Part shown: piece after piece, positions 2,228-19,743 of the stretch
Numbering within the stretch: the stretch's first letter is position 1
How the letters are laid out: the number at the start of each line of letters is the position of its first letter
DNA from: a bacterium
GTDB taxonomy: Bacteria > SZUA-182 > DTGQ01 > JAFGSM01
Assembly (NCBI GenBank): GCA_049472315.1
Contig: JBLIRN010000015.1
Span: 2,598-66,597, forward strand
Reading direction: 5' to 3'
Length of the DNA: 64,000 bases
Notes under the pieces: generated by a model
What the model was told of the DNA's origin: nothing
The model's database searches: none
The model's input: the letters and a program-made list of their open reading frames with translations, nothing else
Translations under genes and position numbers: made by a program

Positions 2228-2684
2228 ACACGGTGCCATCATGCCTCTCCTTTTTTGTCTGAGATTGAGCACAGTCCTGCCGCATCACCGGTGTGCATTC
2301 CTATGGCCGCTGACCCTGCACATGATGATCCGATCACCGGCAAGGGGTGGGATACCTTCACCGAAGGTACATTATCACCCGGTTGCAGCCCCTCTATAAT
2401 ATAAGAAATCCCATGTATTGCAACACCTGCCTTACACATACCCGCCTAATGTCAAACGGAGATATTCGTCATCCTACACGTGCCCGGGGTGGAGGCAGCG
2501 ATTCAAATTTTGAAATTGAATAATCGGAGTCAGAAGGTATGTCCGACCATGCTCCTTGACCAACGATACGACTTTGGAATTGGCAAGGGTGCGGTCGTTG
2601 TTATTTTGTATCGGGTTTGTTTATAATAACGTGATATCATTTTTTCATGTATCGTGCATTGAACTGCCCGGCAAGGATGGAGCA

Positions 2685-3293
2685 ATGGACATCAAGTGTC
2701 TTTTCAAGAGGATCAAGTACGGCAAACCCATCATCATTGTCTCCGGCCTGCCTCGGTCAGGGACCTCAATGGTGATGAAGATGCTGGAGGCAGGGGGAAT
2801 GAAGATCGCCTCCGATGGCATACGGGCCGCAGATGACGACAATCCCAAGGGGTACTATGAGCTCGAGAGGGTGAAGACACTGGACAAGGAAATGGACAAA
2901 TCCTGGCTTCGGGAGCTTCGCGGCAGGGCGGTGAAGATCATCTCCTACTTTCTGCGGTATCTGCCTGACAGCAATTACTACAAGGTGATATTCATCGACC
3001 GGAATCTGGACGAGGTGGTAGCCTCCCAGAACAAGATGCTGGCCAATCGGGAAAAAACCCATGATCCATGCGACGATGAATGCATCATCAAGAATTTCGA
3101 GAGCCATCTATGGAAGATACGGAATACGATTCTTGCCAAATCCTGGTTTGAGCCACTGTATCTCAACCATCGCCTTGTGCTCACCAATCCGAGGGAACAG
3201 GCCCGGATAATCAAGCGGTTTTTGGGCGGGTGCCTTGATGAGGAGCGGATGGCGAGTATCGTGGATCCCAAGCTCTACCGGAACCGCAAATAG
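2685..3293 (+). CDS. sulfotransferase family protein
   Basis: ORF 2556..3293. Likely true start is the ATG at 2685 (MDIKCLF), with an AAGGA RBS 7 nt upstream. The PAPS-binding P-loop-like motif IIIVSGLPRSGTSM and overall sulfotransferase-like layout support the call. Confidence 0.7.
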   Translation: MDIKCLFKRIKYGKPIIIVSGLPRSGTSMVMKMLEAGGMKIASDGIRAADDDNPKGYYELERVKTLDKEMDKSWLRELRGRAVKIISYFLRYLPDSNYYKVIFIDRNLDEVVASQNKMLANREKTHDPCDDECIIKNFESHLWKIRNTILAKSWFEPLYLNHRLVLTNPREQARIIKRFLGGCLDEERMASIVDPKLYRNRK

Positions 3294-3300
3294 GACGTTC

Positions 3301-4362
3301 TCAGGGGATCGGCACCAGCTCGACCCGGCGGTTTTTGGCCCTGCCGTGGATGGTCTTGTTTGATGCGACGGGCTTCGAAGAGCCATACCCTCCGGCGAAG
3401 AGCCGCGTGCTGTCAACGCCCTTGCTCACCAGATAATCCATCACCGCGCAGGCGCGCCTGTGAGAGAGAACGAGATTGTGCGCCTCGGATCCGGTGTTGT
3501 CCGTATGCCCCTGGATTTCAACCCTGAGGGAGGGATTCCCCTTCAGTATCGTAACGATTTCGTCCAGCAGCGGATACAACCCTTGCTTGATCTGCCATTT
3601 CCCCGGATCAAAATGAGCCCCGGTGATCACCCAGCAGCCTCGCTCGTTGATGGACGCCCCTCGAGGTGTGTCAGGGCATGCGTCCAGGTAATCGGGGACC
3701 CCGTCCAGGTCGGAGTCGACCGGACATCCCCTGGTGTCCACCGATACACTGGAGGGTGTCTTCGGGCAATCGTCCAGGTGATCGTAGACCCCATCCTGAT
3801 CGGAATCAGCCGGGCATCCCTTTCTGTCAACAGGGATCTCCCGGGGGGTGCCGGGACATACATCGGCCATGTCTGGCACACCGTCTGCATCCGTATCCTG
3901 CGGGCATCCGTTGGCGTTCACGGTGATGCCCGCAGGGGTGCCTGGGCAGCGATCGAATGCATCGTAGATCCCGTCACTGTCCGTATCCGCAGGACAGCCG
4001 CTCGGGCCGACCTTCATGGAGGACGGTGTTCGCGGGCACAGGTCGTGCTCGTCGGAGACGCCGTCCCCATCCTCATCCGCAGGTTTTTCTTCCCCATCCG
4101 GTAGCTGTATCCTTCTTCTGCCCCCGGCGGATAGAAGCGTCCGGTGACCTCTCTCGGTTTCTACGGGATTCTCATGCAGGGAATCGTTGCAGAAACCGCT
4201 GTTCAGGCCTTCCACGAGAGGTGGCTGCTTCTCGCCGATACGGATCTTCGAACTGGCGATACAGGCAGGGAGAGCGGTATTCTGCATGGCCCATACCCGT
4301 GCGGCGCATGCGGTGGTGACCGCACCTGTGATGATCATGGTGAGCACAAGGACCTTCTTCAT
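3301..4362 (-). CDS. OmpA family protein with thrombospondin type-3 (TSP3) calcium-binding repeats
   Basis: Signal peptide at the N-terminus. Multiple DxDxDGxxDxxDxCP repeats in the middle. C-terminal OmpA/MotB peptidoglycan-binding domain (RVEIQGHTDNTGSEAHNLVLSHRRA). Confidence 0.85.
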   Translation of the reverse strand: MKKVLVLTMIITGAVTTACAARVWAMQNTALPACIASSKIRIGEKQPPLVEGLNSGFCNDSLHENPVETERGHRTLLSAGGRRRIQLPDGEEKPADEDGDGVSDEHDLCPRTPSSMKVGPSGCPADTDSDGIYDAFDRCPGTPAGITVNANGCPQDTDADGVPDMADVCPGTPREIPVDRKGCPADSDQDGVYDHLDDCPKTPSSVSVDTRGCPVDSDLDGVPDYLDACPDTPRGASINERGCWVITGAHFDPGKWQIKQGLYPLLDEIVTILKGNPSLRVEIQGHTDNTGSEAHNLVLSHRRACAVMDYLVSKGVDSTRLFAGGYGSSKPVASNKTIHGRAKNRRVELVPIP

Positions 4363-4467
4363 GCCGGGTTCGTCACGCCTCCTTCCCTAATGTATATATC
4401 GATCCGAATCGCAAAGACCATGGGGGTGAAGGGTGCTGATGTGACGAAGGGGGGATGTGATGGATGC

Positions 4468-6039
4468 TCAGGATGGGGAGGGAGTCCCTTTTTCGGATGC
4501 CTGGCTTACAGGTTTCATCGGTTCGGGCGCATGCGGTTCATCCGGGGACCTTTTTTCAACCCCGCTCAGTTCATGGAGGTATCGGGTGAATTCCTCCTGG
4601 TCGGGGGTATTGGCAAGGGCGATCTCATCGCATGCGGCCCCGATCTCGTGTTTTCCCGGGGCATCGGAAGGGATCTGTTCGGCCCAGAGAATGAGCGCCG
4701 CAAGGAAGAGGGAGAGGTCCTGCTGCTGTTTCAGGGCGATCTTCTCCTTGAAATAGGAGGCAATCCTGTGCATGGTGTTCCTTTTTATTCCCCTCAATAT
4801 CGGGAGGAGTATCGCCGCTGCAACAAGGAAGGTGAGTGCCCCCACTTGAATCCCGGGGATACGATGCCCCATCTTTGCTGCGAACATGGCAATAGCGATG
4901 GCGAGCAATGTAAAGAAGATGAAGAGAAGGTGGATCACGCGCCGTGCGCCCCTGTCGTCCGCCTCCTCCCTCGATCCCTGGTACAGGTTGGAGAAATAGG
5001 TAAAGAGCTTGTCCTTCTGAGTTTGCAGGGTAGATGCCGCGCCGGGCGGGGGATACGTGCCGACGATATCGGATTGTGTTTCGGCAGGGACTTTTCGGCC
5101 CTCCACCTTGTCATCTGCGGTCTCCTTCACCCCTTCGGGCAGAGTGCCGGTTCCGGTGGAACTCCCAGCCGCCTGGGATGGTGATGATGGGGTCGGCCCT
5201 GTCCGGGGAGGGGTGACCTCGGTGATCTTAATCTCATCGGTTTCTGGCTCCTGCCGCACCTCTTCCTGTTTTTGCCTTTTTTTCATGAACTCTATATAGC
5301 GCGCAATGATGATGCCGCACCTGACGCATTCAGGTCCCTCCTTTTGCTCATATCCGCATTTCGGGCAGGTCATGAGGGGTGAGGGTGCGCCTGTCGGAGG
5401 GGATGCGGGTGCGGAGGGACGGGATGGGGTTGTGCCTGCCGAAGGGTGCGGAGGTGTAGACGATTGGGGCGAGGAGGCGCCTATCGGGGTTTTGGGGGGA
5501 GCGGAAGGTGATGATGAGGATGCACCTGTCGGGGCACTTGGCGGGCTGGAAGGGCGGGATGCAGGTGTATCTGCCTGAGCGCGTGGAGGTGTGGAGCCCT
5601 GTGATGGGGAAGCTCCTGCTGAAGGGTGCGGGGGGGGGGATGGTTGTGATGAAGAGGTGGAAGGTCTGGATGAGGCTGCACCCGACCCAGGGGATGGGGG
5701 TGCGGAGGGACGGGATGGGGAAGCTCCTGCGGGTGTTTGTTTCGGGCCGGCGGGCCGGGGTGAGGCCGGGGGACCGGTTGTTTTCCGGGGCTCGCCGATC
5801 CCCTTTTCCGGGCGAAAGATTTTGCATTGTGCCCCCGCTTGCTTGAACGGGCCGTAGATTTTGAGCGCGGTTTGATAATCGATGTTCTCTGCGATGGTGA
5901 TCGGGGCAAGGGAAAAGAGGTTGTCCACCCTGCTGCGGCTCCATTTGAAGATCCTGCACAGCTCGTTTTTGACCTCCTCCAGGTCGCGCCCTTGCAAGAC
6001 CTTTCCTTCAAAGATGATCTTGAAACATTTCTCAGTCAT
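4468..6039 (-). CDS. hypothetical membrane protein with Pro/Ser-rich low-complexity repeats and a zinc-ribbon
   Basis: 523-aa ORF. Long PS-rich segments carry imperfect tandem repeats (PPHPSAG...SPS). Zinc-ribbon CPKCG-x10-CVRCG. Two or three predicted TM helices (LLFIFFTLLAIAIAMFAA, ALTFLVAAAILLPIL). The overlapping plus-strand ORF 4144..5184 shows no features of a real protein. Confidence 0.6.
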   Translation of the reverse strand: MTEKCFKIIFEGKVLQGRDLEEVKNELCRIFKWSRSRVDNLFSLAPITIAENIDYQTALKIYGPFKQAGAQCKIFRPEKGIGEPRKTTGPPASPRPAGPKQTPAGASPSRPSAPPSPGSGAASSRPSTSSSQPSPPPHPSAGASPSQGSTPPRAQADTPASRPSSPPSAPTGASSSSPSAPPKTPIGASSPQSSTPPHPSAGTTPSRPSAPASPPTGAPSPLMTCPKCGYEQKEGPECVRCGIIIARYIEFMKKRQKQEEVRQEPETDEIKITEVTPPRTGPTPSSPSQAAGSSTGTGTLPEGVKETADDKVEGRKVPAETQSDIVGTYPPPGAASTLQTQKDKLFTYFSNLYQGSREEADDRGARRVIHLLFIFFTLLAIAIAMFAAKMGHRIPGIQVGALTFLVAAAILLPILRGIKRNTMHRIASYFKEKIALKQQQDLSLFLAALILWAEQIPSDAPGKHEIGAACDEIALANTPDQEEFTRYLHELSGVEKRSPDEPHAPEPMKPVSQASEKGTPSPS

Positions 6040-6063
6040 GAGACCTCCTGTGCCGGGCGATCA

Positions 6064-6726
6064 TCATTCCCCTGCCGCATCCCCATCTCGTGTTCCCACC
6101 TTTTCCCTGATTGCGTCGGCATCGAGATCCTCGATGAGCTTGACGAGATGGGTCCAGATCTTGTGATATCCGAATCCCCCGGTGGTCATCTCCGCTATCG
6201 CCTCCTGTTTTGACCAACCGCAGACAACGACCCGGTACGCCGCCACCATCACCCCGGTGCGGTCCGCCCCGTGCATACAGTGCACGAAGACCGGTGTTCG
6301 CGCCTTGTCGGTCACGATCTGCAGGAAATGAACGATATCCTTCTCGCTCGGATACCACGCGCCGACCCGGATGTGCTCGTTATCAAGCCCTGTGTCATCG
6401 ATTTCATCCTTGTCCGAATGGAACGTGCGCAGGTTTATAACGGTTTTGATCCCCATTTCCTTAAGCCGGCGCATCCCTTCTGCAGTAGGCTGGGCGCCGC
6501 GGTACAGGTCATCGCACACCTTGTGCAGGTTGGGAAGTCCCTCGTATTCGAGGGGTTGCGCCCAATGAGCAGGACGTGGCTCTATCCCCGAATCTCCCAT
6601 GGTTTCAGAAATCCCGGGAATCATGCCCACGAGGAGAACCGATACAAGTACACACCCCCATATTCCGTTGAGTCCGGGAAACCATGCCCTTGTGTGACAA
6701 TTGGCGATGATTCCAATGGATTTCAC
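6064..6726 (-). CDS. protein-tyrosine/dual-specificity phosphatase family protein (CX5R active site), membrane-anchored or secreted
   Basis: Catalytic motif VHCMHGADRTG (HCxxGxxR). N-terminal hydrophobic segment WGCVLVSVLLVGMIPGI. Same strand as, and downstream of, the glucan water dikinase operon. Confidence 0.8.
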   Translation of the reverse strand: MKSIGIIANCHTRAWFPGLNGIWGCVLVSVLLVGMIPGISETMGDSGIEPRPAHWAQPLEYEGLPNLHKVCDDLYRGAQPTAEGMRRLKEMGIKTVINLRTFHSDKDEIDDTGLDNEHIRVGAWYPSEKDIVHFLQIVTDKARTPVFVHCMHGADRTGVMVAAYRVVVCGWSKQEAIAEMTTGGFGYHKIWTHLVKLIEDLDADAIREKVGTRDGDAAGE

Positions 6727-7019
6727 CCTTGTCTGCTATCCCCTCCGCAATGCCGCCCTTGTATCATTGCCGGACGTTCTGCGCTGCCTTCACCCCTCCC
6801 CGCTCACAGGAATGACCTCACCGGGTGATGCCCCTGTGACGGGCCGTTTCGCAGGGCGCCGGAATGCATTGTGCATCCTGGATTGCATCCGGCGTCCCGG
6901 ATTAAAATTATCGCATCCTGCAATGGATTTGTAAACACGTGAGCGGCTCGTGAAGCACTTATGATTTCGGCATTGCGTCATTGTGGGCGGATATTCCGCA
7001 CCATTCGATGAACGAGACA

Positions 7020-7436
7020 TCATTTGCCCTCGATAGGGTACCGGGATCTCATCCACTCGTCCCACCCCCCGGAGAGGGTGTAGACCTTTTTGAATCCCTT
7101 CGACTTGAGCCTTTGTGCCAGTCCCGCGCTGGTCGAAATATTCGGGGATGCGCAATAGAGGATGATGGTATCCTCCTTCGGATATTTCTGTAGCCAGGAG
7201 TTTACCTTTTCGGCGGCTTCCCGCAGCGCCCCCTTGATCATGAAGCCGCTTTTTTTCCAGTCCGTTTCGGTGCGTACATCCAGAATGGTCGGATCGGTAT
7301 ATTCAATAAGCACCCTGAGTTCCTCTTTGGTGATTCTGGACTCTGCATCGGCAGCCAGGGTCGTACATGCGCTCACGGCGAGCATGAGCAGGAGGAACGA
7401 TATAACCCTGCACCGCATGAGAGTTTCGTCCAACAT
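7020..7436 (-). CDS. rhodanese-like domain lipoprotein (sulfurtransferase)
   Basis: Rhodanese fold with the active-site loop region IILYCASPNISTSAG. N-terminal signal with lipobox LAVSAC. Start may be the internal Met (MRCRV...) at 7418. Confidence 0.75.
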   Translation of the reverse strand: MLDETLMRCRVISFLLLMLAVSACTTLAADAESRITKEELRVLIEYTDPTILDVRTETDWKKSGFMIKGALREAAEKVNSWLQKYPKEDTIILYCASPNISTSAGLAQRLKSKGFKKVYTLSGGWDEWMRSRYPIEGK

Positions 7437-7439
7437 GAT

Positions 7440-8318
7440 TCATCCTCCCTCAAGGTAGTCATTATGCCGAGCGTGGACTGTTCCCTTCTCCTGCCGATGT
7501 TGATCGGTAAGCAGGAGCAGCCTCTCGCGTGCCCGATTGAGGAGTGACGGTGGATCCGGCCACTGCTCCAGTATGATGGAGCCGGAAAAACGGCGTTTCT
7601 TCAGCCGGTCGAGGAAACCCCGAAGTCCGCTTTCATCCCGGGCAGAAGGCCCTGAAAAGACAAGAAGATGGCTGTCCCTGTCCCCGAAATTTTCGTGAAG
7701 GTGGACATGGATGATGGGTATCGCCGGATCGAGCCGGTCAAAGAACCGGAGGTAGTCGTTCACCGTGGAAGGGGAGAGGTTTGCGTGCCCCAGGTCAAGG
7801 CACATGCCCACGTGAGAGGCATTCCGGGCTCGGGATGCGTGCAGGCGAGCGAATACCTCGTTAATGTCCTCGGGTGAGGTGTGGGGGGTGTTCTCGATGG
7901 AGAGACTGATCCCCATGGCAGCGGTAAGCCCTATAATGTCCTCTATTGCCGTAGCGAAACGCCCTGCCTCGGCGCTTAGATGGATGTTGAAGAGGGTGGC
8001 GCCGATTTCCCGGGCAAATGAAATCCCCTGCAGCATATGGTCATGCCCCACGGGGGTGAAGGGATCTGCTTCCCACGGTGCATGCACGGAGAGGGTTATG
8101 CCGCTGGCACGAGCAGTCTGCCCGATGGAACGGCGGGTCCGGTGGTTGATGTCGGGGATTAAAAACCCCGCGCCGGTCTCCTTCTTGTCTGGAAACCACT
8201 CGAACGCATCGAAGCCGCTGGTGACCGCATACTCGAAGGGGAGCAGGGGGTATCTGGCCGTATACGAGGTCTGGTTGCCGATCCTGAAGGGTTTCCGTTC
8301 GCTATCGATCCCTTTCAT
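7440..8318 (-). CDS. sugar phosphate isomerase/epimerase (xylose-isomerase-like TIM barrel)
   Basis: AP endonuclease 2 / xylose isomerase-like TIM-barrel signatures (HAPW, ISLSIEN, metal-binding H/D/E pattern). Start overlaps the 3-prime end of the dikinase gene by 17 nt, suggesting translational coupling. Confidence 0.8.
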   Translation of the reverse strand: MKGIDSERKPFRIGNQTSYTARYPLLPFEYAVTSGFDAFEWFPDKKETGAGFLIPDINHRTRRSIGQTARASGITLSVHAPWEADPFTPVGHDHMLQGISFAREIGATLFNIHLSAEAGRFATAIEDIIGLTAAMGISLSIENTPHTSPEDINEVFARLHASRARNASHVGMCLDLGHANLSPSTVNDYLRFFDRLDPAIPIIHVHLHENFGDRDSHLLVFSGPSARDESGLRGFLDRLKKRRFSGSIILEQWPDPPSLLNRARERLLLLTDQHRQEKGTVHARHNDYLEGG

Positions 8319-11300
8319 CCTTCCACTCCGTGAGCCCTACCTGGGGACGTGCCTGAACCACGAAACATTCCCCGCGGGCATAGGCCCCTTCGATATCCTG
8401 GGGGAGGCCCAGGGCATGCTCTGTTTCAATACCGGTCCTGGTGATCCCCAGGAGAAGGTCTCTCCTGAAATTCTCGTCCTGCACCAGTGGTTCGTGGGAA
8501 TAGTCGAGGACCACCCTGCGGGAAGGCCTCGACAGGATGCTGTCGTAGAGCCCGGCTCCCGCGTAGCCGGCAAGGTCCTCGGCGTTTGAATCCGAGCGGA
8601 AGATGAGCCCTGCGCCGAAGATTCCGGTGCCCTTGCTCGGATACGAGAGCACCTGCGGTTCGGGATGCCCCTTGTTTGAGACGAATCCCAGTGCCCTGCC
8701 AGGGTGGTTTCCGACCAGGGTTTCGCCCAACCCTACCACTACCTCCGCATAGAGTTCATGCCTGTTCCCGGTGAAGGGACTGGCGGTGTGGATCACGAAT
8801 GCGTAATCCGCTTTTACCACCTCCTGGATGAGCACCGCCATGAACAGATCCCGGTGCCTCAATCCCCATGCCCTGCGACTCAGGTATGCCCGTTCGTTCC
8901 ACTTGGATGCCCATACCCGTTTGATGCATTCCCATATATGATTCCAGTCTCCCCTGAAGCGAAGCCCCGCTTCCTCCATGGTTCCTTTGAGCGAGGGCAT
9001 GAATCCCTCAGGCTGCTCGAGAAGCATGAGGCAGGAGCGAACCTCCTGGAGGGTTTTGGCCGGATGTCTTCCGATCCTGCCGGTGAGATCCGCATAACGC
9101 TGCGCAATCACATGGTTTTTTCGATCAGAGAGCACCATGTCGAATGTACCGAAGGGAAGGGCCACGGATGCGGGGATGTGAATCCATGCAGGCAGTGCAT
9201 CGGCAAGGCGTTTCAAGTTGAAGGACTTCCCCCCTACGACCTCTCTTCTAAAATATTCCAATCCCACCGGCCGGGCACGGGTATCCACCTGTAAAGACAT
9301 ATTCGGCCGGGTAAGAAGGGTGCGCCGCATGCGAGGGGATGCCTGTTCAGCCTTTCTTTTCTTTCCTTGACCTTCCGCCATAAGCACCTCCCCGGATGCG
9401 GAGGAGGTGAGCCGGATGTATTGTCCCTCCAGGGCGGCAATACGATCCATCGTGTCCTTGTCGTAGCAGGCGGCAAAGAGAAGGCCGGTGTTGCGTGCCC
9501 GGATTGCTATGTGGGAGACACAATCGACTGTCTCGGCGGTAAGAAGGGCGTTAATTCCCTCGGGGATCTCCTCCTCGCCGGTGATGCCTCGGGCAACCAC
9601 CACGGTAGGGGTGGAAAACACCCTTCCCTGTATCGATCGGAGGCGGTCCACCACCATGACGGTTCCTTCTCCGCTGCCGGGACTGATGATCTGCCAGTTC
9701 CCGAGCTCGGCCAGGGTGCGCAGCACCGGGGTGAGATGACGCACGAATTGCGACAGGATAAAGGCGAGTCCCCCCCTGACCACCTCCTCGCTGAACAGGG
9801 TGATGCTCCAGGACTCTGCGCGGAGGGCATCGCCCAGCGATTCCGCCACGGGCTGGATGTGCTGGGAGAGGGCATCGATGAACGCGCCGAGGGCACGCTC
9901 CAGTCTCTCCAGCACGGATGCTGCCTGGAGGGACCATTCCCGGTCGAGGCGGCGGTCTTCCATGAGCCGGTCCCAATGGCGGCAGCATGCGGCGATCTCC
10001 TCATCATCCCGGGTAAGGATCATGTTTGTGAGCACCAGGCCGATGATCTCGACAAGCTGGCTCCTGTCGAAGTTATGGTGGAGGTTTCGCTCGGCAGCCG
10101 AGCGCAGAAGCCCTTCCAGTGAGAGGTCGAGGAAGAGGAGATCGCGGATCTGTTCAGGACTTTCTCCAGTGTGCAAAGACTCGTTGATATGAGTGCGGAC
10201 CATGGTGATTCGGGAGAGGAGGTCCGTCAGGGATGCGGCTGCGGTATCCCGGTGGCGCCAGATAAACCGGAGCTGGGCATTCGTCCTTTTATCGAGGTGC
10301 GGTTCGGCCGATTCCATGGCATTTTCAAGGTCGGTGGCCGAGTAAACCGATTTGAGAATCTTCAGGTAGCGCTCGAAGTCATCGATCAGCGCCTCCTGTA
10401 TATCCGGATAAAACTCCGGCTCCGTGAGAATGGGCCGCTCGAAGCCCCCCAGGCGACTTCTTCCGACCCCGCCCTCCTCGAGTGTTGCATAGAACAGGTC
10501 GAGATCCCCGCCGCTTCTGAGGAAGTCAAGATATGCCTCGCTGATGACGATGTCATCCGGCGTGGCATTGTTGTGGAGCTTCTGGTGCCACTCCTCCAGA
10601 AAATTACCGGCCACCTCCTTGATCCGGTGTCTGTGCATGATATTGAGGAACTCATCCCGTATTCGCTGCCCCTCTCCACCCCTGCCCAGTGTGGTCATGA
10701 TCAGACGGATCCATTCACGCAGCTTTTCTCCGCCCTTGCGGAAGTTGTCCGCAAGCCTCAGGGTGAGGCGGTCCAGGGCATGGCTCAGTTCCCGGGGCTG
10801 GGTGTTGTAGTGGCGTTGCCAGGTCAGTTGCCGTATGGCGGAAAGGCGCAGCCATCCGTAGAGCAGGGCCAATCCCTCGATATCCTCACCCACCCGCTCC
10901 AGGAGGTCGAAGGCAAGATTGTACCGGTGCATCAGTGACCAGGAGCCGCTCCTCGTTTCGGCATGGATGATTTCGGCGGCAATACCGGAAAGGAGCGGGG
11001 ATGCGCCCCACGACGACTGATACGATATATCACGGAGGGGCATAGAGAAATTGCGGCCGTTGTTCCTGATCCAGTATCCCGTATCGGGCTGCCACAGCAG
11101 GAAGGAGATGCCCTGTGGAGCATGTGTCCTTCCAAATTCCAGGCGGATTCGATTGATCCCCTCCCGCTCGGAAAAGGGGGTGCGGGCTGCGGATCGTTGA
11201 AATACAATGGTGCCGGGAGGGCGTATGGAGGGAGCGGGCAGGGACCATTCATCTCGACGGTTCTGCCGCGTTACGCCCCAGTGGAGAATAAGGGGGCCGG

Positions 11301-11823
11301 GCACGTTGGTCACCAGGGTTACCCGCAGGACGTCCTCCTCCCGGGTGACCGCACCTGCCAGAAGGCCATTCTCGAACCGGTAGAGGTGCTCGAACATCAC
11401 GGTTTTCTGAGCGATCTCCCCTTTAAGGACATTGGATGGGGAGGACGGCACCTTGAGGGCGGGCAATTCGATACGGTAATTCTCTCCGTTGTTGTTATCC
11501 CAGGATTCCTCCTCCGGAAAGAAGAGGACAAAATCGATGAGGGAAAAGTCCGGGGACAGGGGGAGCCGAATGTGGATACGCCCCTCGCCGTCATCGAGAC
11601 TGAAGGGGGTTTGTACCGCGTCCGGGCCGATCTGCCGTGTGCCCTCGGGCCAGTATGTGCGTGGCGGAATTCTCCATGGTGCTTTGGGGTAGCGGCTGAG
11701 CCCCCAGTGAAGGAGACAGCGCCTCCTGGGATTCAACCGCAGGAATACCTCGATCCCATGGGCGGCAATGTGCTTTTCCACATGGAGCCTGAGCCCCTTT
11801 CCTGTTTCTATTTCCTCAGTCAC
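8302..11823 (-). CDS. alpha-glucan, water dikinase (GWD/R1-like; starch/glycogen phosphorylating dikinase)
   Basis: ORF 8302..11985. Probable start is the GTG at 11823, preceded by an AGGA RBS (MTEEIETGK...). The phosphohistidine domain (TAETVDCVSHIAIRARNTG) is followed by a C-terminal nucleotide-binding domain; this is the GWD order, not the PEP-synthase order. Long C-terminal block is near-identical in pattern to plant GWD: WASKWNERAYLSRRAWG, MAVLIQEVVKADYAFVIHTASPFTGN, YAEVVVGLGETLVGN, FRSDSNAEDLAGYAGAGLYDS, LPQDIEGAYARGECFVVQARPQ. Confidence 0.85.
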   Translation of the reverse strand: MTEEIETGKGLRLHVEKHIAAHGIEVFLRLNPRRRCLLHWGLSRYPKAPWRIPPRTYWPEGTRQIGPDAVQTPFSLDDGEGRIHIRLPLSPDFSLIDFVLFFPEEESWDNNNGENYRIELPALKVPSSPSNVLKGEIAQKTVMFEHLYRFENGLLAGAVTREEDVLRVTLVTNVPGPLILHWGVTRQNRRDEWSLPAPSIRPPGTIVFQRSAARTPFSEREGINRIRLEFGRTHAPQGISFLLWQPDTGYWIRNNGRNFSMPLRDISYQSSWGASPLLSGIAAEIIHAETRSGSWSLMHRYNLAFDLLERVGEDIEGLALLYGWLRLSAIRQLTWQRHYNTQPRELSHALDRLTLRLADNFRKGGEKLREWIRLIMTTLGRGGEGQRIRDEFLNIMHRHRIKEVAGNFLEEWHQKLHNNATPDDIVISEAYLDFLRSGGDLDLFYATLEEGGVGRSRLGGFERPILTEPEFYPDIQEALIDDFERYLKILKSVYSATDLENAMESAEPHLDKRTNAQLRFIWRHRDTAAASLTDLLSRITMVRTHINESLHTGESPEQIRDLLFLDLSLEGLLRSAAERNLHHNFDRSQLVEIIGLVLTNMILTRDDEEIAACCRHWDRLMEDRRLDREWSLQAASVLERLERALGAFIDALSQHIQPVAESLGDALRAESWSITLFSEEVVRGGLAFILSQFVRHLTPVLRTLAELGNWQIISPGSGEGTVMVVDRLRSIQGRVFSTPTVVVARGITGEEEIPEGINALLTAETVDCVSHIAIRARNTGLLFAACYDKDTMDRIAALEGQYIRLTSSASGEVLMAEGQGKKRKAEQASPRMRRTLLTRPNMSLQVDTRARPVGLEYFRREVVGGKSFNLKRLADALPAWIHIPASVALPFGTFDMVLSDRKNHVIAQRYADLTGRIGRHPAKTLQEVRSCLMLLEQPEGFMPSLKGTMEEAGLRFRGDWNHIWECIKRVWASKWNERAYLSRRAWGLRHRDLFMAVLIQEVVKADYAFVIHTASPFTGNRHELYAEVVVGLGETLVGNHPGRALGFVSNKGHPEPQVLSYPSKGTGIFGAGLIFRSDSNAEDLAGYAGAGLYDSILSRPSRRVVLDYSHEPLVQDENFRRDLLLGITRTGIETEHALGLPQDIEGAYARGECFVVQARPQVGLTEWKDERDR

Positions 11824-12006
11824 ATCTTTTATCCTAATGATTCCTTGGAGTTTTTGACATGCGGGAGCACACCACACATATCCCGGATGACGGCCGTGCA
11901 AGGGTATACGGGGTCCGAGGAATGACGGAATCGCATTTATTCTATAGCAGCGGAAAAGGAAAAGTCCAGCATACACAAAATGCATGAAACAGCCGGCGAG
12001 GATGGG

Positions 12007-12215
12007 AAATGGGGTCAGGTCTTGAATTGACAGTTTTTTCCCGGGTAAAGATTTTTATTTTTTGTTGCGAAAATAGATTTTCATGCTTCGTGGTGCCACA
12101 AAGTGGCATGAGCGTTTGCTCCGAAAATAGAATCATATTTTCATGCTTCTTGGTGCCACAAAGGGATATGAGCGTTTGTTGTTAAAAACTGTCAATTCAA
12201 GACCTGACCCCATTT
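12007..12215. repeat. MITE-like element: 32-bp perfect terminal inverted repeats (AAATGGGGTCAGGTCTTGAATTGACAGTTTTT) flanking a ~145-bp core with two tandem ~50-bp hairpin-containing direct repeats
   Basis: IR-L at 12007..12038 and IR-R at 12184..12215 are perfect reverse complements. The core holds DR1 at about 12068..12118 and DR2 at about 12121..12178. Both copies share GAAAATAG...TTTTCATGCTTC.TGGTGCCACAAAG.G.ATGAGCGTTTG, with an embedded GCCAC-AAA-GTGGC hairpin in DR1. Located between tsaC and the dikinase gene. ORFs 11942..12136(-) and 12143..12364(+) are artefacts of this repeat. Confidence 0.6.
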
Positions 12216-12284
12216 TGTTATGTCTGATTATTTACTATTTCGCCCGGGCACCCGGATGCGGGGCCAAAATGCACAGAGAGGCCC

Positions 12285-12905
12285 CTAGAGAAAAGGAAAA
12301 GGAATGCCCTTCCCCTCCCGCAGCACCTTCACCTCTTCGCCTGAGAGATCCACCAGGGTGGTAGGCTCGGTCCCGCAGAATCCACCATCGATGATGAGAT
12401 CCACCTGCCTGTCCAGCCGCTCCCGTATCTCCTCCGGGTCCCTCATGGGGGATTCGTCTCCCGGGATGATCAGGGTGGTGGTGAGCATCGGCTCGTGCAA
12501 CTCGGCAAGCAGGGCTTGAACGATGCGATGGTCGGGGATGCGTATCCCGATGGTCTTTCTCTTCGGATGCAGCAGCCTTCGGGGCACTTCTTTGGTGGCC
12601 CTGAGGATGAAGGTGTAGGGACCGGGGGTATTCGTCCTGAGGAGGCGGAAGACCGGGGTATCGAACCGCGCGTATATCCTGGCCTCCGAAAGATTCCTGC
12701 AGATGAGGGTGAAATTGTGTTTTTCGGTAAGGTTGCGAATCTGGCAGATCCTCTCCTGTGCGGCCTTGTCTCCGATGTGGCATCCGAGCGCATAGGTCGA
12801 GTCGGTGGGATAGACCACCACCCCGCCGTTGCGTATGATCTCCACCGCCTGATCAATGAGCCTTATCTGGGGAGTGTCAGGGTGGACCACCAGGAACTGA
12901 CTCAT
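12285..12905 (-). CDS. tsaC: L-threonylcarbamoyladenylate synthase (YrdC/Sua5/TsaC family)
   Basis: YrdC-domain motifs VVVYPTDSTYALGC and K..R..P.....LL. Length ~206 aa, typical of TsaC. Confidence 0.85.
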   Translation of the reverse strand: MSQFLVVHPDTPQIRLIDQAVEIIRNGGVVVYPTDSTYALGCHIGDKAAQERICQIRNLTEKHNFTLICRNLSEARIYARFDTPVFRLLRTNTPGPYTFILRATKEVPRRLLHPKRKTIGIRIPDHRIVQALLAELHEPMLTTTLIIPGDESPMRDPEEIRERLDRQVDLIIDGGFCGTEPTTLVDLSGEEVKVLREGKGIPFPFL

Positions 12906-13104: not shown

Positions 13105-14112
13105 TCAGGTCTTCCCTTTGGACCCCAAGGCAGTACAGAGGGACTCCGCTGCAACAGAGATCCGGTTGCGCCCACCGTTTTTTGCCTGATAGAGGCCGTG
13201 GTCCGCATCAGCAATGACCTCTCTCCAGGAACCCTTGGCTGTGCAGTCGGCGATGCCTCCGCTTATGGTAACAACCTTAAAAGGGGTTTTGCAATGGGGA
13301 ATGGCAAGAAGCTCTATATCCTTGATGACCCGTTCGGCAAAGGTAACGGCGCCTTCCGGCAGGGTTTCCGGCAACAGGAGGAGAATTTCGTCACCGCCGT
13401 AGCGGTAGAGGCGGTCGACCTTACGGGTGTTGACCTGAAGGAACTCGGATATTCGTTTGAGGAGACGGTCCCCAGCGGGATGTCCATAGTGGTCGTTGTA
13501 GAGCTTGAAATTATCGATGTCGAAGAGCACCACGGAATAAGGGCGCCTGTACCGAAGGTTCAGGGCATGGGTAAGTTCCAGGTCCACCTCCATGGCACGG
13601 CGGTTTCCGATATGCAGGAGGGAGTCTTCAAGGGAGAGGGCCTTGAGTTTTTCATTTGCATCCATGAGTTCCCGTATCCGCTGCTCGATGGATTCCTCGA
13701 TGGAGGTTCGCTGTGTATCCAGTATGTGGAAATAGGCCTTGACCAGATCCGACTGGGTGATGAGCCCTGCAAGCTCACCCTTTGAGTCCACCACGATGAG
13801 GTGCCTGATCTTCTGTACCCGGGTGATGGAAAGGGCATTGAAGAGCGTTTCGGTATCGTTGATGGTTATGGGAGGCGATGACATGACGTTGTATGCCTTC
13901 TTGGTGGGTTTTTTTGCCTTGTCGACCACATCCGTGAGAAAGCGCACCAGGTCCCTCTCGGTGATGATGCCCAGGGGGACGTTTCGCTCCTCGATCACCA
14001 CGCACGAGCAGTTCTTTTCCCTCAGGACATGGAGGATATCCTGTATGGAGGTGTCCGGAGAAACGGAGACGACCTGGCAGGTCATCAGGTTTTTTATGAG
14101 AATATCCTGCAC
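13105..14112 (-). CDS. CBS-pair domain-containing diguanylate cyclase (GGDEF)
   Basis: N-terminal tandem CBS domains (VVSVSPDTSIQDIL..., VMSSPPITINDTETL...). C-terminal GGDEF domain with RYGGDEI active site and VVLFDIDNFKLYNDHYGHPAGD. Confidence 0.85.
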   Translation of the reverse strand: MQDILIKNLMTCQVVSVSPDTSIQDILHVLREKNCSCVVIEERNVPLGIITERDLVRFLTDVVDKAKKPTKKAYNVMSSPPITINDTETLFNALSITRVQKIRHLIVVDSKGELAGLITQSDLVKAYFHILDTQRTSIEESIEQRIRELMDANEKLKALSLEDSLLHIGNRRAMEVDLELTHALNLRYRRPYSVVLFDIDNFKLYNDHYGHPAGDRLLKRISEFLQVNTRKVDRLYRYGGDEILLLLPETLPEGAVTFAERVIKDIELLAIPHCKTPFKVVTISGGIADCTAKGSWREVIADADHGLYQAKNGGRNRISVAAESLCTALGSKGKT

Positions 14113-14218
14113 CTTCTCCTCTCCTCGCTTTACATTGCAGTGTCGAGGTGCCCTTGATCATTGATAGGGCTCCACTTCTTGTTTCGGCCATTTCACGCGG
14201 AATGGACGAGGGGGGGGA

Positions 14219-14725
14219 TCATCCGGGGATTATTCTTCTCCGGATCAGGCAGAAGAGGAGGAGCATCAGGACGGCGATCGCAGAGGGCCAGAGATGGAAG
14301 AGGCGCTTCTTTTTATAGATGATAACGAGCGCATGGGTGGTGAAGATAAAGGATACCAGGAGGATGGCATAGCTGAGGTATTTCATCGACAAGTCGGCGG
14401 TGGCGGTGTTGGCCTGCAGCATCAATGCGCGTTCGGCGCACCATATGAAATAGAGTGTGGTGATCCCTTGTGCCGACAAGGGGATGAGGAAGTGCCGCCT
14501 GCCCCATCCTGCCCTGTAAAAGTGCGCCAGGAAGATGCCGAATGCAACCCAGGGCACCATCAGGGCGAGTCCATAGCACAGGGCGATTCCCCATGGGGAA
14601 TGCGCGAGGGAGCCGACCACAAGCATGACGACAATGGTCGCGGCAAGAAAGGGAAGGGTATCCCACGCCTCCTTCGCGTACGTCATATCCATCTCCTGCA
14701 TTCTGAACCTTTCCGGAGCATGCAT
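14219..14725 (-). CDS. hypothetical integral membrane protein
   Basis: Four to five hydrophobic helices. True start is probably an internal Met near 14701..14686. No recognisable family. Confidence 0.5.
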   Translation of the reverse strand: MHAPERFRMQEMDMTYAKEAWDTLPFLAATIVVMLVVGSLAHSPWGIALCYGLALMVPWVAFGIFLAHFYRAGWGRRHFLIPLSAQGITTLYFIWCAERALMLQANTATADLSMKYLSYAILLVSFIFTTHALVIIYKKKRLFHLWPSAIAVLMLLLFCLIRRRIIPG

Positions 14726-19300: not shown

Positions 19301-19743
19301 TGCCCTGTTCCGATTTGAGTGCGAAGGATTCATGGCCGGAGACGGCATCGGTTGCCGATTTGAAGGGAAACGGAGAAAGGATCCTTATTGTGGAGGACGA
19401 GGTATCGGTGCGGGAGCTGGCCAAAAGGGCGCTCTGCAATGCAGGGTATGTGGTCTTTGACGCATCCTGTGTGCAGGATGCCTTGGGCATATTCGAAGGG
19501 GAGGGCGGGAGGTTCGATCTCGTGCTGAGCGACGTGGTCCTCCCTGATCAGAGCGGGCTCTTTTTGACCCGTTGCCTGAAAACCAACGCCGCTTCCTTGA
19601 AGATCATCCTGAGCAGTGGTTACACGGATGAGAAATCACAAAGCAAGATCATCCTGGAGGAGGGGATCGATTTTCTTCAGAAACCCTACACCCTGCGAGA
19701 ACTCCTTAAATGTGTAAAACATTCTATTCAGTCGCCCTCTTGA
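16354..19743 (+). CDS. hybrid sensor histidine kinase/response regulator with multiple PAS domains and a GAF-like domain
   Basis: Four or more PAS/PAC repeats (e.g. ERHRAEEALRQSERKYRELVENINDVIYRVD). HisKA H-box HKRLEEQFYHAQKMEAIGILAGGIAHDFNN. HATPase_c blocks (NLVVNARDAMPKGG, DTGTGID, GTGLGLS). C-terminal REC domain (ILIVEDEVSVRELAK...DLVLSDVVLP). Antisense ORFs 16243..17916 and 18250..19242 are rejected. Confidence 0.9.
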   Translation: MGNGGKGKGSDRSELTALCRRVAARQGNVGARRQALKEHEEPRRPINEGIPVSGIEDIAARRQAEERLRVSEEKYRSLVENSNDGICILQDGVVKFANAHLAGLLGYTMEEGIGSSFQRYVSPEELPKVQERYVSLVKGEKDEARFETTLVSRDGRRIETELNISVTYYEGRRSILVFIRDITERHRAEEALRQSERKYRELVENINDVIYRVDESGTIAYVSPAVEIMLGYTPAEVVNHSFARFIYREDLPRCMKNFQHTLEGNVTSGEYRVVTRAGSIRWIRTSTRPVMQGERVIAVEGVLTDITESREAEELLRESEERYRTFLQNFQGIAFRQHFDFAPVFFHGNCEGITGYREKDLTGGKIRWNDIVHPEDLAMFYETGIRLHGTPDQAIERQYRIIRKDGRVVWVHEFIRNICNHKGRPVMLQGSVYDITDHKLADQALQQSQNELSIRNRIANIFLTLSDEAIYSEVLKVVLDAVESPLGYFGYIDEGGNLVCPMLSRHIRERCRMPGKDIRFHSESWRGLWGKSLAEKGSFIMNTPLTVPEGHPPINRTLIVPVIHKGEVIGQIVAANRDQDYSEADLGLLETIAHSIAPILHARLQVEKQEKERSRAETELFLTKSHLEYLLRSVPAVIYSRKAHEDWSPTFVSENILAQIGYTQEDLLADPKFWINHVHPEDVQRVLVGLERIIDEGVLIHEYRFLHHDGVYHWLRDDCRLVRDAAGAPLEIVGSLIDITEHKRLEEQFYHAQKMEAIGILAGGIAHDFNNLLQAIMGYSDSILLDGDDPQQHIRDVEQIKKATAKAASLTRQLLAFSRKQSTNPGLLDINALISDMGAMLGRIIGEDIELTEMLQSDLRSVKGDQGQMEQVIMNLVVNARDAMPKGGRLILGTENVTVRKEDCQGIPHAEPGEYVCLSVEDTGTGIDRQIMDRIFEPFFSTKHQAEGTGLGLSTVYGIVKQHGGWITVESTLGEGSRFRIYLPCSDLSAKDSWPETASVADLKGNGERILIVEDEVSVRELAKRALCNAGYVVFDASCVQDALGIFEGEGGRFDLVLSDVVLPDQSGLFLTRCLKTNAASLKIILSSGYTDEKSQSKIILEEGIDFLQKPYTLRELLKCVKHSIQSPS

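Follow-up and report, generated by a model that had tools for sequence, protein, structure and literature searches.

What does a plant-type glucan, water dikinase do in a bacterium, and which gene, if any, encodes its opponent? In the literature, the phosphorylation of glucan by GWD and PWD is a hallmark of starch-accumulating eukaryotes. The window analyzed here (the whole stretch of 64,000 nucleotides) encodes a GWD homolog, and a first-pass annotation proposed that a dual-specificity-type phosphatase (DSP) encoded downstream reverses its action, by analogy with the plant enzymes SEX4 and LSF2. Our analysis upholds the dikinase and points to a different partner. We estimate at roughly 0.6 the probability that the dikinase gene and the TIM-barrel gene overlapping it form a two-gene cytoplasmic glucan-phosphorylation cassette, with the TIM barrel as the predicted counter-enzyme. 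The conserved link between these two genes appears to be the new element, bacterial GWD homologs themselves having been known before. The latter were already noted in a 2018 phylogeny and are mentioned in passing in PMC6260743, the only mention found in a literature search (of incomplete coverage) on bacterial GWD and KEGG K08244; as recently as 2025, bacterial glycogen phosphorylation was still termed speculative or left open (PMC13011383).

The features considered below are the following, in window coordinates:

8302..11823, minus strand: GWD-family alpha-glucan, water dikinase gene (assigned from Pfam, the plant GWD1 alignment and an identical NCBI MAG protein)
11449..11766, minus strand: first CBM45-like Ig domain of the dikinase (approximately aa 20-125, limits approximate; PF23166 stretch)
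11035..11340, minus strand: second CBM45-like Ig domain (aa 162-263; best PF23166 stretch)
9709..11004, minus strand: GWD central helical domain (aa 274-705; PDB match)
9373..9699, minus strand: phosphohistidine domain (aa 709-817; PF22973)
8329..9276, minus strand: C-terminal nucleotide-binding (ATP-grasp) domain (approximately aa 850-1165; PF01326)
7440..8318, minus strand: Endonuclease-IV/MJ1311-like TIM-barrel protein, candidate phosphoglucan phosphoesterase (292 aa; PF01261)
7020..7436, minus strand: rhodanese with a lipoprotein-type signal (PF00581), starting 3 nt past the TIM-barrel stop codon
6064..6726, minus strand: TpbA-like, apparently exported dual-specificity phosphatase (220 aa; Pfam DSP/PTP families)
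12007..12215, no strand assigned: 209-bp element, located 184 nt upstream of the GWD start, whose terminal inverted repeats (32 nt) are perfect
2..2227, minus strand: GH13 gene, truncated at the window edge, whose N-terminus resembles a signal peptide
46788..48953: GH77 gene, 35 kb from GWD

The dikinase gene

To judge by its domain architecture and alignments, the gene at 8302..11823 encodes a true, full-length member of the GWD family. Its mechanically called open reading frame extends to 11985, and the start was set at 11823, at a GTG codon, because an identical MAG protein at NCBI has 1173 aa and homologs have about 1160 aa. The coordinates given in the first-pass annotation thus hold, its length of 1174 aa being corrected to 1173 aa plus the stop codon.

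Pfam detects Ig_N_CWD1 (PF23166) in two stretches (2e-47), GWD1_pHisD (PF22973; 3e-34) and PPDK_N (PF01326; 3e-21), with the phosphohistidine domain ahead of the nucleotide-binding domain, in agreement with the order first read from the sequence. Both plant CBM45 regions are aligned, the first Ig domain corresponding to residues 134-219 of plant GWD1, including LLHWG and W..NNG.N, and the second to residues ~460-540. Each domain contains three tryptophans (W40, W50 and W108 in the first; W182, W193 and W251 in the second) that are invariant in 20 bacterial homologs, as is the catalytic H771, whose CAC codon lies at 9511..9513. The motif SHIAIRARN pairs with SHVSVRARN in plants (conserved form SH[IV][AS][IV]RARN). 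The central domain (residues 274-705) matches the solved plant GWD fragment 9ha9/9qvi with E=2e-76, and the nucleotide-binding domain follows the C-terminus of plant GWD1 block for block. The C-terminal motifs quoted previously (WASKWNERAY, DYAFVIHT, YAEVVVGLGETLVG, FRSDSNAEDLAGYAGAGLYDS and QDIEG) are all found in the protein and align with cotton (Gossypium) GWD1, to which the dikinase is 39% identical over 1075 aa. Membership among PEP synthases or rifampicin phosphotransferases, against which a profile check had been suggested, was rejected: the NCBIfam PEPS and Rph models cover ~77 residues and score 32-63 bits, for cut-offs of 600-1000.

The order of modules, namely tandem CBM45-like, central helical, phosphohistidine and nucleotide-binding domains, is common to the dikinase and plant/algal GWD1 (SEX1/R1; EC 2.7.9.4). 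In contrast to the plant enzyme, the bacterial protein is ~300 residues shorter, lacks a transit peptide, has a shorter linker between the CBM45-like domains and comes from a bacterial operon that also encodes a TIM-barrel partner. A signal sequence was looked for in both the GWD and the TIM-barrel proteins, and neither has one. At the redox-pair position, the dikinase reads LFAAC (LFATC in the bacterial consensus), with a single cysteine where plant CFATC forms a disulfide near the catalytic histidine; the CFATC plastidial redox switch is a trait of the plant enzymes and does not define the family.

Distribution and glucan gene context

Relatives of the dikinase are encoded by 294 species genomes of the GTDB set, and the relatives retrieved at E<1e-30 form 549 clusters at 50% identity. 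The neighbourhoods of 80 GWD-homolog loci were surveyed, including 56 loci for which 3 kb or more of downstream sequence is available. At least one alpha-glucan enzyme family was present in 40 of the 61 loci with a flank of at least 5 kb. Locus L010 shows, in order, GWD, a TIM::dikinase fusion, an unknown gene, GH13/hDGE_amylase, DUF4912 and a GH57 branching enzyme, and further loci contain a GT5 synthase, isoamylase, GH77 or GH57-DUF3536. These neighbourhoods support a tie between the dikinase family and alpha-glucan metabolism across bacteria. Because of this genomic context, an alpha-glucan substrate is supported for the window enzyme, which most probably works on such a glucan.

No other alpha-glucan genes were found within 10 kb of GWD in this window. 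The GH13 and GH77 genes had been put forward as glucan-degrading partners; since the former looks exported and the latter lies 35 kb away, neither is a demonstrated partner of GWD, and both were set aside as dedicated ones.

In many relatives, a second, divergent dikinase follows GWD and mirrors the plant GWD/PWD pair (PWD/GWD3; EC 2.7.9.5). With 25% identity to the window GWD, it comprises a central domain, a phosphohistidine domain with SHLAIRAR, and PPDK_N; one fragment of such a protein bears the JGI label 'phosphoglucan, water dikinase'. The N-terminus of this bacterial paralog is an Endo IV-like TIM barrel, whereas that of plant PWD is a CBM20. No second dikinase was found in this window, which differs from the relatives with GWD and a fused PWD-like enzyme in having the TIM barrel as a separate gene.

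The TIM-barrel gene as conserved partner

The TIM-barrel gene overlaps the dikinase gene by 17 nt on the same strand, as reported in the first-pass annotation, where it was called an isomerase. The gene is indeed there and proves to be a conserved partner, but its product looks more like a phosphoesterase. A TIM barrel is located directly downstream of GWD, on the same strand, in 53 of the 71 informative loci, and an adjacent one is absent from 17-18 loci that have downstream sequence. The 53 cases divide into 29 standalone genes, 19 fusions, two genes with a separate second dikinase after them and three truncated genes; in the fusions, the TIM barrel is N-terminal to a second, PWD-like dikinase, usually within alpha-glucan gene clusters. 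The TIM-GWD loci span at least seven phyla, with representatives in Nitrospirota, Desulfobacterota, Verrucomicrobiota, Planctomycetota, Acidobacteriota, Deferribacteres and Chromatiales. Reciprocally, the three TIM homologs sampled on long contigs all adjoin a GWD- or PWD-like dikinase. The TIM homologs are 53-61% identical, a level comparable to that of the GWD homologs. A functional coupling of the TIM barrel to the dikinase is, in our view, very likely.

Nine His/Asp/Glu residues (H79, H113, E142, D175, H178, H208 (or H206), D215, H217 and E251) are invariant in 35 TIM sequences. In an hhalign comparison with E. coli Nfo, they align with the metal residues of E. coli Endo IV (probability 82%, E 1e-5), which we take to be H69, H109, E145, D179, H182, H216, D229, H231 and E261. 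The five ligands that set the Endo IV center apart (the equivalents of H69, H109, H182, D229 and H231) are thus invariant in the TIM family. Metal roles have been confirmed for H69, H109, H216 and D229 of Endo IV (PMC11621827). In profile searches, the TIM barrel retrieves MJ1311, then AP endonucleases and Endo IV, the epimerase UlaE reaching just E 0.56; the sole NCBIfam match is the phosphodiesterase CbiR.

The window protein accordingly appears to have in common with Endonuclease IV (Nfo) and MJ1311 (PDB 3wqo) the TIM fold together with the full set of nine trinuclear-center ligands. In the MJ1311 structure of Uechi et al. 2014 (Acta Cryst F), the nine zinc ligands of Endo IV are reportedly conserved and the DNA-binding groove is lacking. 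The TIM barrel is nevertheless just ~18-21% identical to Nfo and MJ1311, displays invariant aromatic motifs of its own (FEWFPD and LEQWP) and, unlike Nfo, belongs to a family genomically tied to glucan dikinases and not to DNA repair. This genomic context argues for a glucan-linked substrate for the TIM family. That the protein is specifically a phosphoglucan phosphatase is a more tentative proposal, to which we give somewhat less than even odds; to our knowledge, Endo IV-type centers act by cleaving phosphodiesters, not monoesters, and a phosphatase fused to a dikinase would create a futile cycle unless regulated. A literature search of incomplete coverage found no report of a GWD/TIM-barrel or GWD/Endo IV link.

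Rhodanese and flanking sequences

The rhodanese scores 146 bits against NCBIfam rhodanese_LYCAU (NF041203; cut-off 115), its LYCA[U/C] motif reading LYCAS, and LYCAC in the orthologue of locus L046. Its N-terminus shows a hydrophobic stretch and the lipobox VSAC. As a neighbour of GWD, it recurs among the 80 loci in L046 and in the sister MAG L001 only, and we judge it to be a lineage-specific neighbour, outside the module. The four genes had been described as co-transcribed. This probably holds for GWD, the TIM barrel and the rhodanese, which are tightly packed; the DSP gene follows after a gap of 293 nt that harbors the region's best promoter-like match (6935..6907, 10/12 with TG). The scan returned five such sites for 3.6 expected by chance, so this site is weak evidence for or against co-transcription, and promoter and terminator predictions were overall at chance level.

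Upstream of the dikinase, the 209-bp element at 12007..12215 is possibly a MITE or a regulatory region. A degenerate copy lies at the same position in L001. An Rfam scan of 5900..12400 gave no match above chance.

Competing readings of the locus

In the cycle first proposed, GWD would phosphorylate an alpha-glucan and the CX5R phosphatase at 6064..6726 would reverse the reaction, like SEX4/LSF2 in plants. The rhodanese and phosphatase genes do follow as described, and several points speak for the latter: a genuine DSP fold (Pfam DSPc and PTP families), an intact HCX5R(T) catalytic loop (HCMHGADRTG), a position ~1.6 kb downstream of GWD on the same strand, and the same arrangement in the 88%-identical sister MAG L001. 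In a verrucomicrobial locus (L036), a gene of weak DSP similarity lies near GWD and the TIM barrel, on the opposite strand. The suggested survey for a conserved CX5R phosphatase nevertheless yielded only these two, one orthologue and one weak match, the DSP being missing from the other 78 of the 80 loci (56 with a downstream stretch of 3 kb or more), an outcome of the kind that the first-pass annotation itself had named as refuting. Locus L046 retains the flanking genes but has a MIF-like ORF in place of the DSP, and three DSP homologs (52-55% identical) reside in unrelated gene contexts. The gap and promoter-like site ahead of the gene also count, weakly, against the cycle. In each of the 25 family members aligned, the N-terminus is rich in K/R and leads into a hydrophobic stretch, with a lipobox in some, and the window protein has a KD hydrophobicity of 2.6 over residues 22-36. 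In a PDB profile search, the closest structure is TpbA (4r0s; 3e-32; profile positions 14-196), the periplasmic Pseudomonas aeruginosa enzyme with a 28-aa signal peptide, which the window DSP matches over the whole catalytic domain and likewise resembles in its N-terminal signal sequence. The same search lists SIW14 and PFA-DSPs, and neither SEX4, LSF2 nor laforin matches at E<=0.01. No TpbB/YfiN-type periplasmic partner was identified for the window DSP. The compartment predicted from its N-terminal signal and its periplasmic nearest relative differs from that of the glucan and the dikinase. The glucan phosphatases SEX4, LSF2 and laforin belong to the cysteine-dependent DSPs and bear CBM48, CBM20 or surface glucan sites; no carbohydrate-binding module was found in the window DSP, whose 220 aa are a signal sequence and a DSP domain alone, and it has the general CX5R DSP fold in common with them and nothing more. 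The conserved bacterial partner, a metal-dependent TIM barrel, is unrelated to all three. The DSP looks like an exported signalling enzyme, the proposed cycle is very unlikely, and in all probability neither the DSP nor the rhodanese has anything to do with the module.

Other readings retain the dikinase and question its partner or its origin. The TIM barrel could be a sugar(-phosphate) isomerase, epimerase or dehydratase, as annotated, processing a small molecule released when phosphoglucan is broken down, for instance a 3- or 6-phospho-sugar, or else a non-hydrolytic phosphate-ester recognition module that targets the PWD-like dikinase to pre-phosphorylated chains. The fold match to the sugar isomerase/epimerase branch (D-tagatose 3-epimerase-like) is equally good, the single-metal E-D-H-E site being a subset of the nine ligands. 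The invariance of the five extra Endo IV ligands argues against that branch, as do the rank of the AP endonucleases and Endo IV right after MJ1311, ahead of UlaE, and the CbiR match; we regard this reading, in either form, as unlikely. Still far less probable is a recent transfer of GWD from a eukaryote (alga or plant) with no integrated bacterial role, or a non-glucan substrate. The suggested phylogeny, a neighbour-joining tree (822 trimmed columns, rooted on the TIM-fused paralog, several 'bacterial' labels being assumed from length only), does set the bacterial clade among eukaryotic GWD1-type lineages, but weakly: over 100 bootstraps, monophyly of the bacterial clade reached 42% and the grouping of bacteria with eukaryotic GWD1-type sequences 49%, so that the tree does not settle whether bacteria or eukaryotes were the donor. 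The GC content across the region is unremarkable and thus offers no compositional signal for transfer in either direction. A recent transfer is hard to reconcile with a presence in those 294 species genomes across many phyla, with a conserved operon of bacterial type, gene fusions and a partner gene that is itself bacterial, or with bacterial sequences that are 45-54% identical to one another and ~39-42% identical to eukaryotic ones, do not fall within any single eukaryotic lineage and include deep-branching members in Auribacterota and Margulisiibacteriota. The catalytic and CBM45-type residues are, moreover, all invariant.

A proposed phosphorylation cassette

In our preferred reading, the genes at 8302..11823 and 7440..8318 would constitute a cytoplasmic cassette with a wide distribution among anaerobic and sediment bacteria. 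By homology, the dikinase would bind an intracellular alpha-glucan via its two CBM45-like domains and transfer the beta-phosphate of ATP, through His771, to glucosyl residues, with release of AMP and Pi; we infer both a storage glucan as the substrate and the position phosphorylated. The TIM-barrel gene would be translationally coupled to GWD through the 17-nt overlap, and its product, with a predicted full three-metal Endo IV-type center, may strip the glucan-bound phosphate. Phosphate removal would let exo-acting degrading enzymes proceed, which is the role of SEX4 and LSF2 in plants and of laforin in animals. Where the TIM barrel is fused to a PWD-like dikinase, as in many relatives, the result would be a GWD, PWD and phosphoesterase set within alpha-glucan clusters. 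The rhodanese and DSP downstream would be exported envelope proteins that adjoin the cassette by chance in this lineage.

Implications for glucan metabolism

A broader claim, that many anaerobes run a full reversible cycle with GWD, a PWD-like dikinase and an Endo IV-type phosphoglucan phosphatase, the last two often fused, is possible but rather doubtful. If true, the TIM phosphatase would be a metal-based counterpart of SEX4, LSF2 and laforin that evolved independently, the MJ1311-like family of orphan Endo IV-like proteins would gain a function, and the bacteria concerned would store a phosphorylated, possibly semi-crystalline, alpha-glucan. A widespread cassette with a conserved candidate phosphatase of a different mechanism, and with a GWD/PWD-like pair located in gene clusters of glycogen and starch type, makes bacterial glucan phosphorylation testable with small, soluble proteins. 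Such proteins would also serve as simpler models in structural and mechanistic work on GWD, an enzyme that according to reviews still lacks a full-length structure (PMC12892837). The bacterial GWD cassette bears on the origin of starch metabolism: if the cycle is real, it would raise anew the possibility that Archaeplastida owe their GWD/PWD pair to bacteria and not to a eukaryotic invention.

Gene layout of the dikinase locus

Every gene in the finding lies on the minus strand. The first-pass annotation had described a dikinase gene overlapped over 17 nt by a TIM-barrel gene and followed by rhodanese and CX5R phosphatase genes, and this set, its order and the overlap were all recovered in the window.

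Features of the locus (coordinates, strand, description)
8302..11823, minus: α-glucan, water dikinase (GWD), 1173 aa, GTG start at 11823 preceded by AGGA
7440..8318, minus: TIM barrel, 292 aa, 17-nt overlap with the GWD gene
7020..7436, minus: rhodanese, 138 aa, begins 3 nt past the TIM-barrel stop codon
6064..6726, minus: dual-specificity phosphatase (DSP), 220 aa, GTG start, motif HCMHGADRTG, 293-nt gap after the rhodanese
4468..6039, minus: Pro/Ser-rich membrane protein, 523 aa, no Pfam family, kept in the sister MAG (L001) and in locus L046
3301..4362, minus: OmpA-family protein with thrombospondin type 3 repeats
between the OmpA-family and GH13 genes, minus: sulfotransferase-like gene
2..2227, minus: GH13 amylase, signal-peptide-like N-terminus, cut by the window edge
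46788..48953: GH77 amylomaltase, a real gene, 35 kb from GWD

A mechanical call extends the GWD open reading frame to 11985; the start was placed at 11823 because the resulting product is identical to a deposited MAG protein and homologs measure about 1160 aa.

A 209-bp element (12007..12215), single-copy in the window, is found 184 nt ahead of the GWD start codon. Its ends are perfect 32-nt terminal inverted repeats and it holds two internal 51-nt direct repeats, each with the palindrome TGCCAC-N3-GTGGCA. A degenerate one-unit version occupies the same place in L001 (~9695..9825). The element had no Rfam match; a MITE is one possible identity, a regulatory region with operators another.

Identity of the dikinase

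On sequence evidence, the window dikinase is a genuine GWD. Its Pfam architecture comprises two Ig_N_CWD1 (CBM45-type) stretches followed by GWD1_pHisD and PPDK_N, in agreement with the proposed order of a phosphohistidine domain before a nucleotide-binding domain. Cotton GWD1 aligns over 1075 positions at 39% identity (BLASTP); this alignment reaches from the second CBM45 through to the C-terminal residue, and the first CBM45 aligns as a separate stretch. All the plant-like motif blocks quoted in the first-pass annotation were found in this comparison. Two entries for the chloroplast GWD central domain (9ha9, 9qvi) match residues 274-705 (2e-76), and a PDB search gave no other solved relatives extending beyond the ATP-grasp core. 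The catalytic histidine motif is kept (SHIAIRARN versus SHVSVRARN in cotton GWD1); across 20 aligned bacterial homologs there is no variation at His771, at the arginines of RARN or at three tryptophans in each CBM45-like domain. The redox pair of plants, CFATC, is replaced by LFAAC in the window protein. Profile comparison with PEP synthases and rifampicin phosphotransferases placed the protein on the GWD side; the NCBIfam models of those two enzymes cover ~77 residues and score far under their cut-offs.

Distribution and phylogeny

In a 90%-clustered protein database, 1376 relatives were detected at E<=1e-10. The best 120 of these are all bacterial-type proteins of ~1030-1190 aa, many labelled 'alpha-glucan, water dikinase' by JGI, and those with a named source belong to Nitrospirota, Deltaproteobacteria and Verrucomicrobia. 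Among 1.84 billion cluster representatives, 549 clusters matched at E<1e-30; their eukaryotic members, identified by look-ups, include cotton GWD1, Nymphaea GWD2, Picocystis, Cyanidium, Gloeochaete and ciliates. Scanning one genome per GTDB species yielded 294 GWD loci, of which 80 were retrieved with flanks for neighborhood analyses; these belong to Nitrospirota/Thermodesulfovibrionia, Desulfobacterota, Verrucomicrobiota, Planctomycetota (Scalindua, Gemmatales), Acidobacteriota, Deferribacteres, Nitrospinota and Chromatiales. One GWD homolog (L052, 45% identity) sits on a 4193-bp contig with a coverage of 0.29 in a Promethearchaeota (Asgard) MAG bin; this placement, which bears on the debate over where eukaryotic GWD came from, is probably a binning artefact.

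In a neighbor-joining tree, the main bacterial clade adjoins the eukaryotic GWD1/GWD2 lineages with a bootstrap below 50%, so that neither bacteria nor eukaryotes can be named as donor or recipient. Two deep bacterial sequences (Auribacterota, Margulisiibacteriota) and a second algal paralog clade fall outside. The latter (P0437, P0441, P0433, P0442, P0443; 99% bootstrap) groups GWD-like proteins of ~1020-1190 aa from cryptophyte, glaucophyte and green algae.

The existence of bacterial GWD homologs is already known: they are mentioned in passing in PMC6260743, which also says that GWD had been known only from starch accumulators, and JGI/KEGG annotation names them. Recent reviews continue to present GWD as an enzyme of plants and algae, and the phosphorylation of bacterial glycogen as an unknown (PMC13011383, PMC12892837). 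Literature searches turned up no work on the function, structure or gene context of bacterial GWD homologs, nor any mention of a link between GWD and a TIM barrel or endonuclease IV.

A TIM barrel is the conserved partner of bacterial GWD

The TIM barrel is a conserved partner of bacterial GWD, lying directly 3' of it on the same strand in 53 of the 71 loci with at least 300 bp downstream. It is standalone in 29 of them, as in the window, and fused in frame to a second dikinase in 19; two loci have a separate second dikinase after the TIM barrel and three are cut at a contig end. The fusions measure ~1150-1200 aa (e.g. L007, L010, L011, L016, L017, L025, L044, L077). That of L010 (13482..17006, 1174 aa) carries the TIM barrel at 24-267, GWD1_pHisD at 711-819 and PPDK_N at 874-1168, and over 955 residues its dikinase portion shares 25% identity with the GWD of the window. 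The catalytic histidine is kept (SHLAIRAR) and SSANLEDL...GAGLYES occurs early in the nucleotide-binding domain, which we take to be the arrangement of phosphoglucan, water dikinase (PWD) and PEP synthase; one fragment of a second dikinase bears the JGI name 'phosphoglucan, water dikinase'. A conserved ~360-aa ORF with no Pfam family follows the fusion in 18 loci.

Conversely, each of the three TIM homologs inspected on contigs of 0.77-3 Mb lies next to a dikinase resembling GWD or PWD, with GT5, GlgB, GH57, hDGE_amylase and small CBM48-only proteins around it. TIM homologs share 53-61% identity with the window protein, similar to the ~50% seen for GWD.

Predicted chemistry of the TIM barrel

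Twelve residues are invariant in 35 TIM homologs (H79, H113, E142, D175, H178, H204, H206, H208, E209, D215, H217, E251). Aligned by hhalign with E. coli endonuclease IV (Nfo; probability 82%, E 1e-5), H79/H113/E142/D175/H178 correspond to Nfo H69/H109/E145/D179/H182, and H208/D215/H217/E251 to H216/D229/H231/E261. Hosfield et al. are said to have listed in 1999 all nine of these Nfo residues as ligands of the three-zinc centre; metal roles are confirmed for H69, H109, H216 and D229 (PMC11621827). The top PDB hit of the family profile is the Endo IV-like protein MJ1311 (3wqo, 3e-12), in which the profile alignment reveals the same nine residues. Its structure paper reportedly describes the nine ligands as present and the DNA-binding groove as absent. 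MJ1311 also appears in an older list of predicted Endo IV homologs (PMC2770678).

A sugar-phosphate isomerase, or else a phosphate-recognition module, is an unlikely identity for a barrel whose profile ranks AP endonucleases and endonuclease IV (6khy, 5zhz, 1qtw) next after MJ1311 and retrieves the epimerase UlaE at only E 0.56. Together with the nine-ligand match, this ranking leads us to read the TIM barrel as a putative three-metal phosphoesterase rather than an isomerase. Its linkage and fusion to glucan dikinases suggest a phosphoglucan as substrate.

The adjacent phosphatase and rhodanese

The first-pass annotation had also proposed that the adjacent DSP reverses GWD phosphorylation, by analogy with SEX4 and LSF2. 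The CX5R motif and the position of the gene agree with such a cycle, which we nevertheless regard as very improbable, as the DSP is not kept beside GWD homologs across the 80 loci, 56 of which have at least 3 kb downstream of GWD. Searching the window proteins against these loci (tblastn) retrieved an orthologue only in L001, an 88%-identical sister genome, and one verrucomicrobial locus has a weak match, 26% identical and on the opposite strand; no additional candidate emerged when every flank ORF was scanned for the CX5R motif. In L046, the TIM barrel, rhodanese, membrane protein and sulfotransferase keep their order, with a MIF/tautomerase-like ORF in the DSP slot. Of the earlier proposal, the GWD identification stood, by Pfam and by alignment to cotton GWD1, and the phosphatase partner did not.

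The DSP family is very large (5670 matches, the best at 55-70% identity; ~200-220 aa), and no dikinase or glucan gene was found near three homologs on long contigs. All aligned members have a K/R-rich start followed by ~20 hydrophobic residues (KD 2.6 at residues 22-36 of the window DSP), with a lipobox in some. With the family profile as query, Pseudomonas TpbA matched at 3e-32 and SIW14 and plant PFA-DSPs at only ~1e-6; none of SEX4, LSF2 and laforin was listed at E<=0.01. TpbA itself, a dual-specificity phosphatase of the periplasm, has a signal peptide of 28 residues (PMC4409338).

The rhodanese, found beside GWD only in L001 and L046 among the 80 loci, carries a signal sequence whose lipobox is VSAC; signal or lipoprotein-type N-termini occur in both the window and L046 proteins. 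It passes the NCBIfam rhodanese_LYCAU (seleno)protein cut-off, but its motif is LYCAS, Ser taking the place of Sec or Cys; in the L046 orthologue (13853..14389) the motif is LYCAC. The DSP, rhodanese, GH13 and OmpA-family proteins give the impression of a block of envelope proteins that borders a cytoplasmic cassette; on the minus strand, 3' of the cassette, 2..6726 encodes a series of proteins that seem to be exported or to belong to the envelope (DSP, membrane protein, OmpA, GH13). Upstream of the cassette lie a CBS-GGDEF diguanylate cyclase (13105..14112), with no evident periplasmic domain, and a large PAS/GAF hybrid histidine kinase (16354..19743). Pseudomonas TpbA targets a GGDEF protein.

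Glucan context and proposed mechanism

Flank ORFs were clustered without bias and then assigned to Pfam families, which identified recurrent GWD neighbors: GH13/hDGE_amylase (23 loci), GT5 glycogen/starch synthase (19), GH57 branching enzyme (17), GH57-DUF3536 (10), DUF4912 (10), short GH57 (9), GH77 (8) and isoamylase (4). At least one recurrent α-glucan family occurs in 40 of the 61 loci having at least 5 kb of flank; the window is an exception, with none within 10 kb of GWD. These neighbors are strong contextual evidence that the substrate of the GWD family is a storage α-glucan. A recent transfer of GWD, not integrated in the bacterium, is a reading to which we give hardly any credence.

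Small stand-alone CBM48/AMPK1_CBM (glycogen-binding) proteins beside GWD/TIM cassettes in two loci (L087, 8827..9339; L089, 365..679 and 1979..2584) may be glucan-targeting subunits.

Judging from homology and conserved catalytic residues, GWD would dock onto an intracellular α-glucan via its CBM45-like domains, and His771 would take the β-phosphate of ATP and pass it to glucosyl residues. Gene context suggests that, in genomes having one, a PWD-like paralog would add a second phosphate, and that the TIM-barrel metalloenzyme would hydrolyse the glucan phosphate esters and so clear the way for phosphorylase, amylomaltase and debranching enzymes. We would class the finding as a bacterial GWD cassette with, as its conserved partner, a predicted metal-dependent, Endo IV-like TIM barrel. 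The hypothesis is specific, would come as a surprise to the field and is inexpensive to test.
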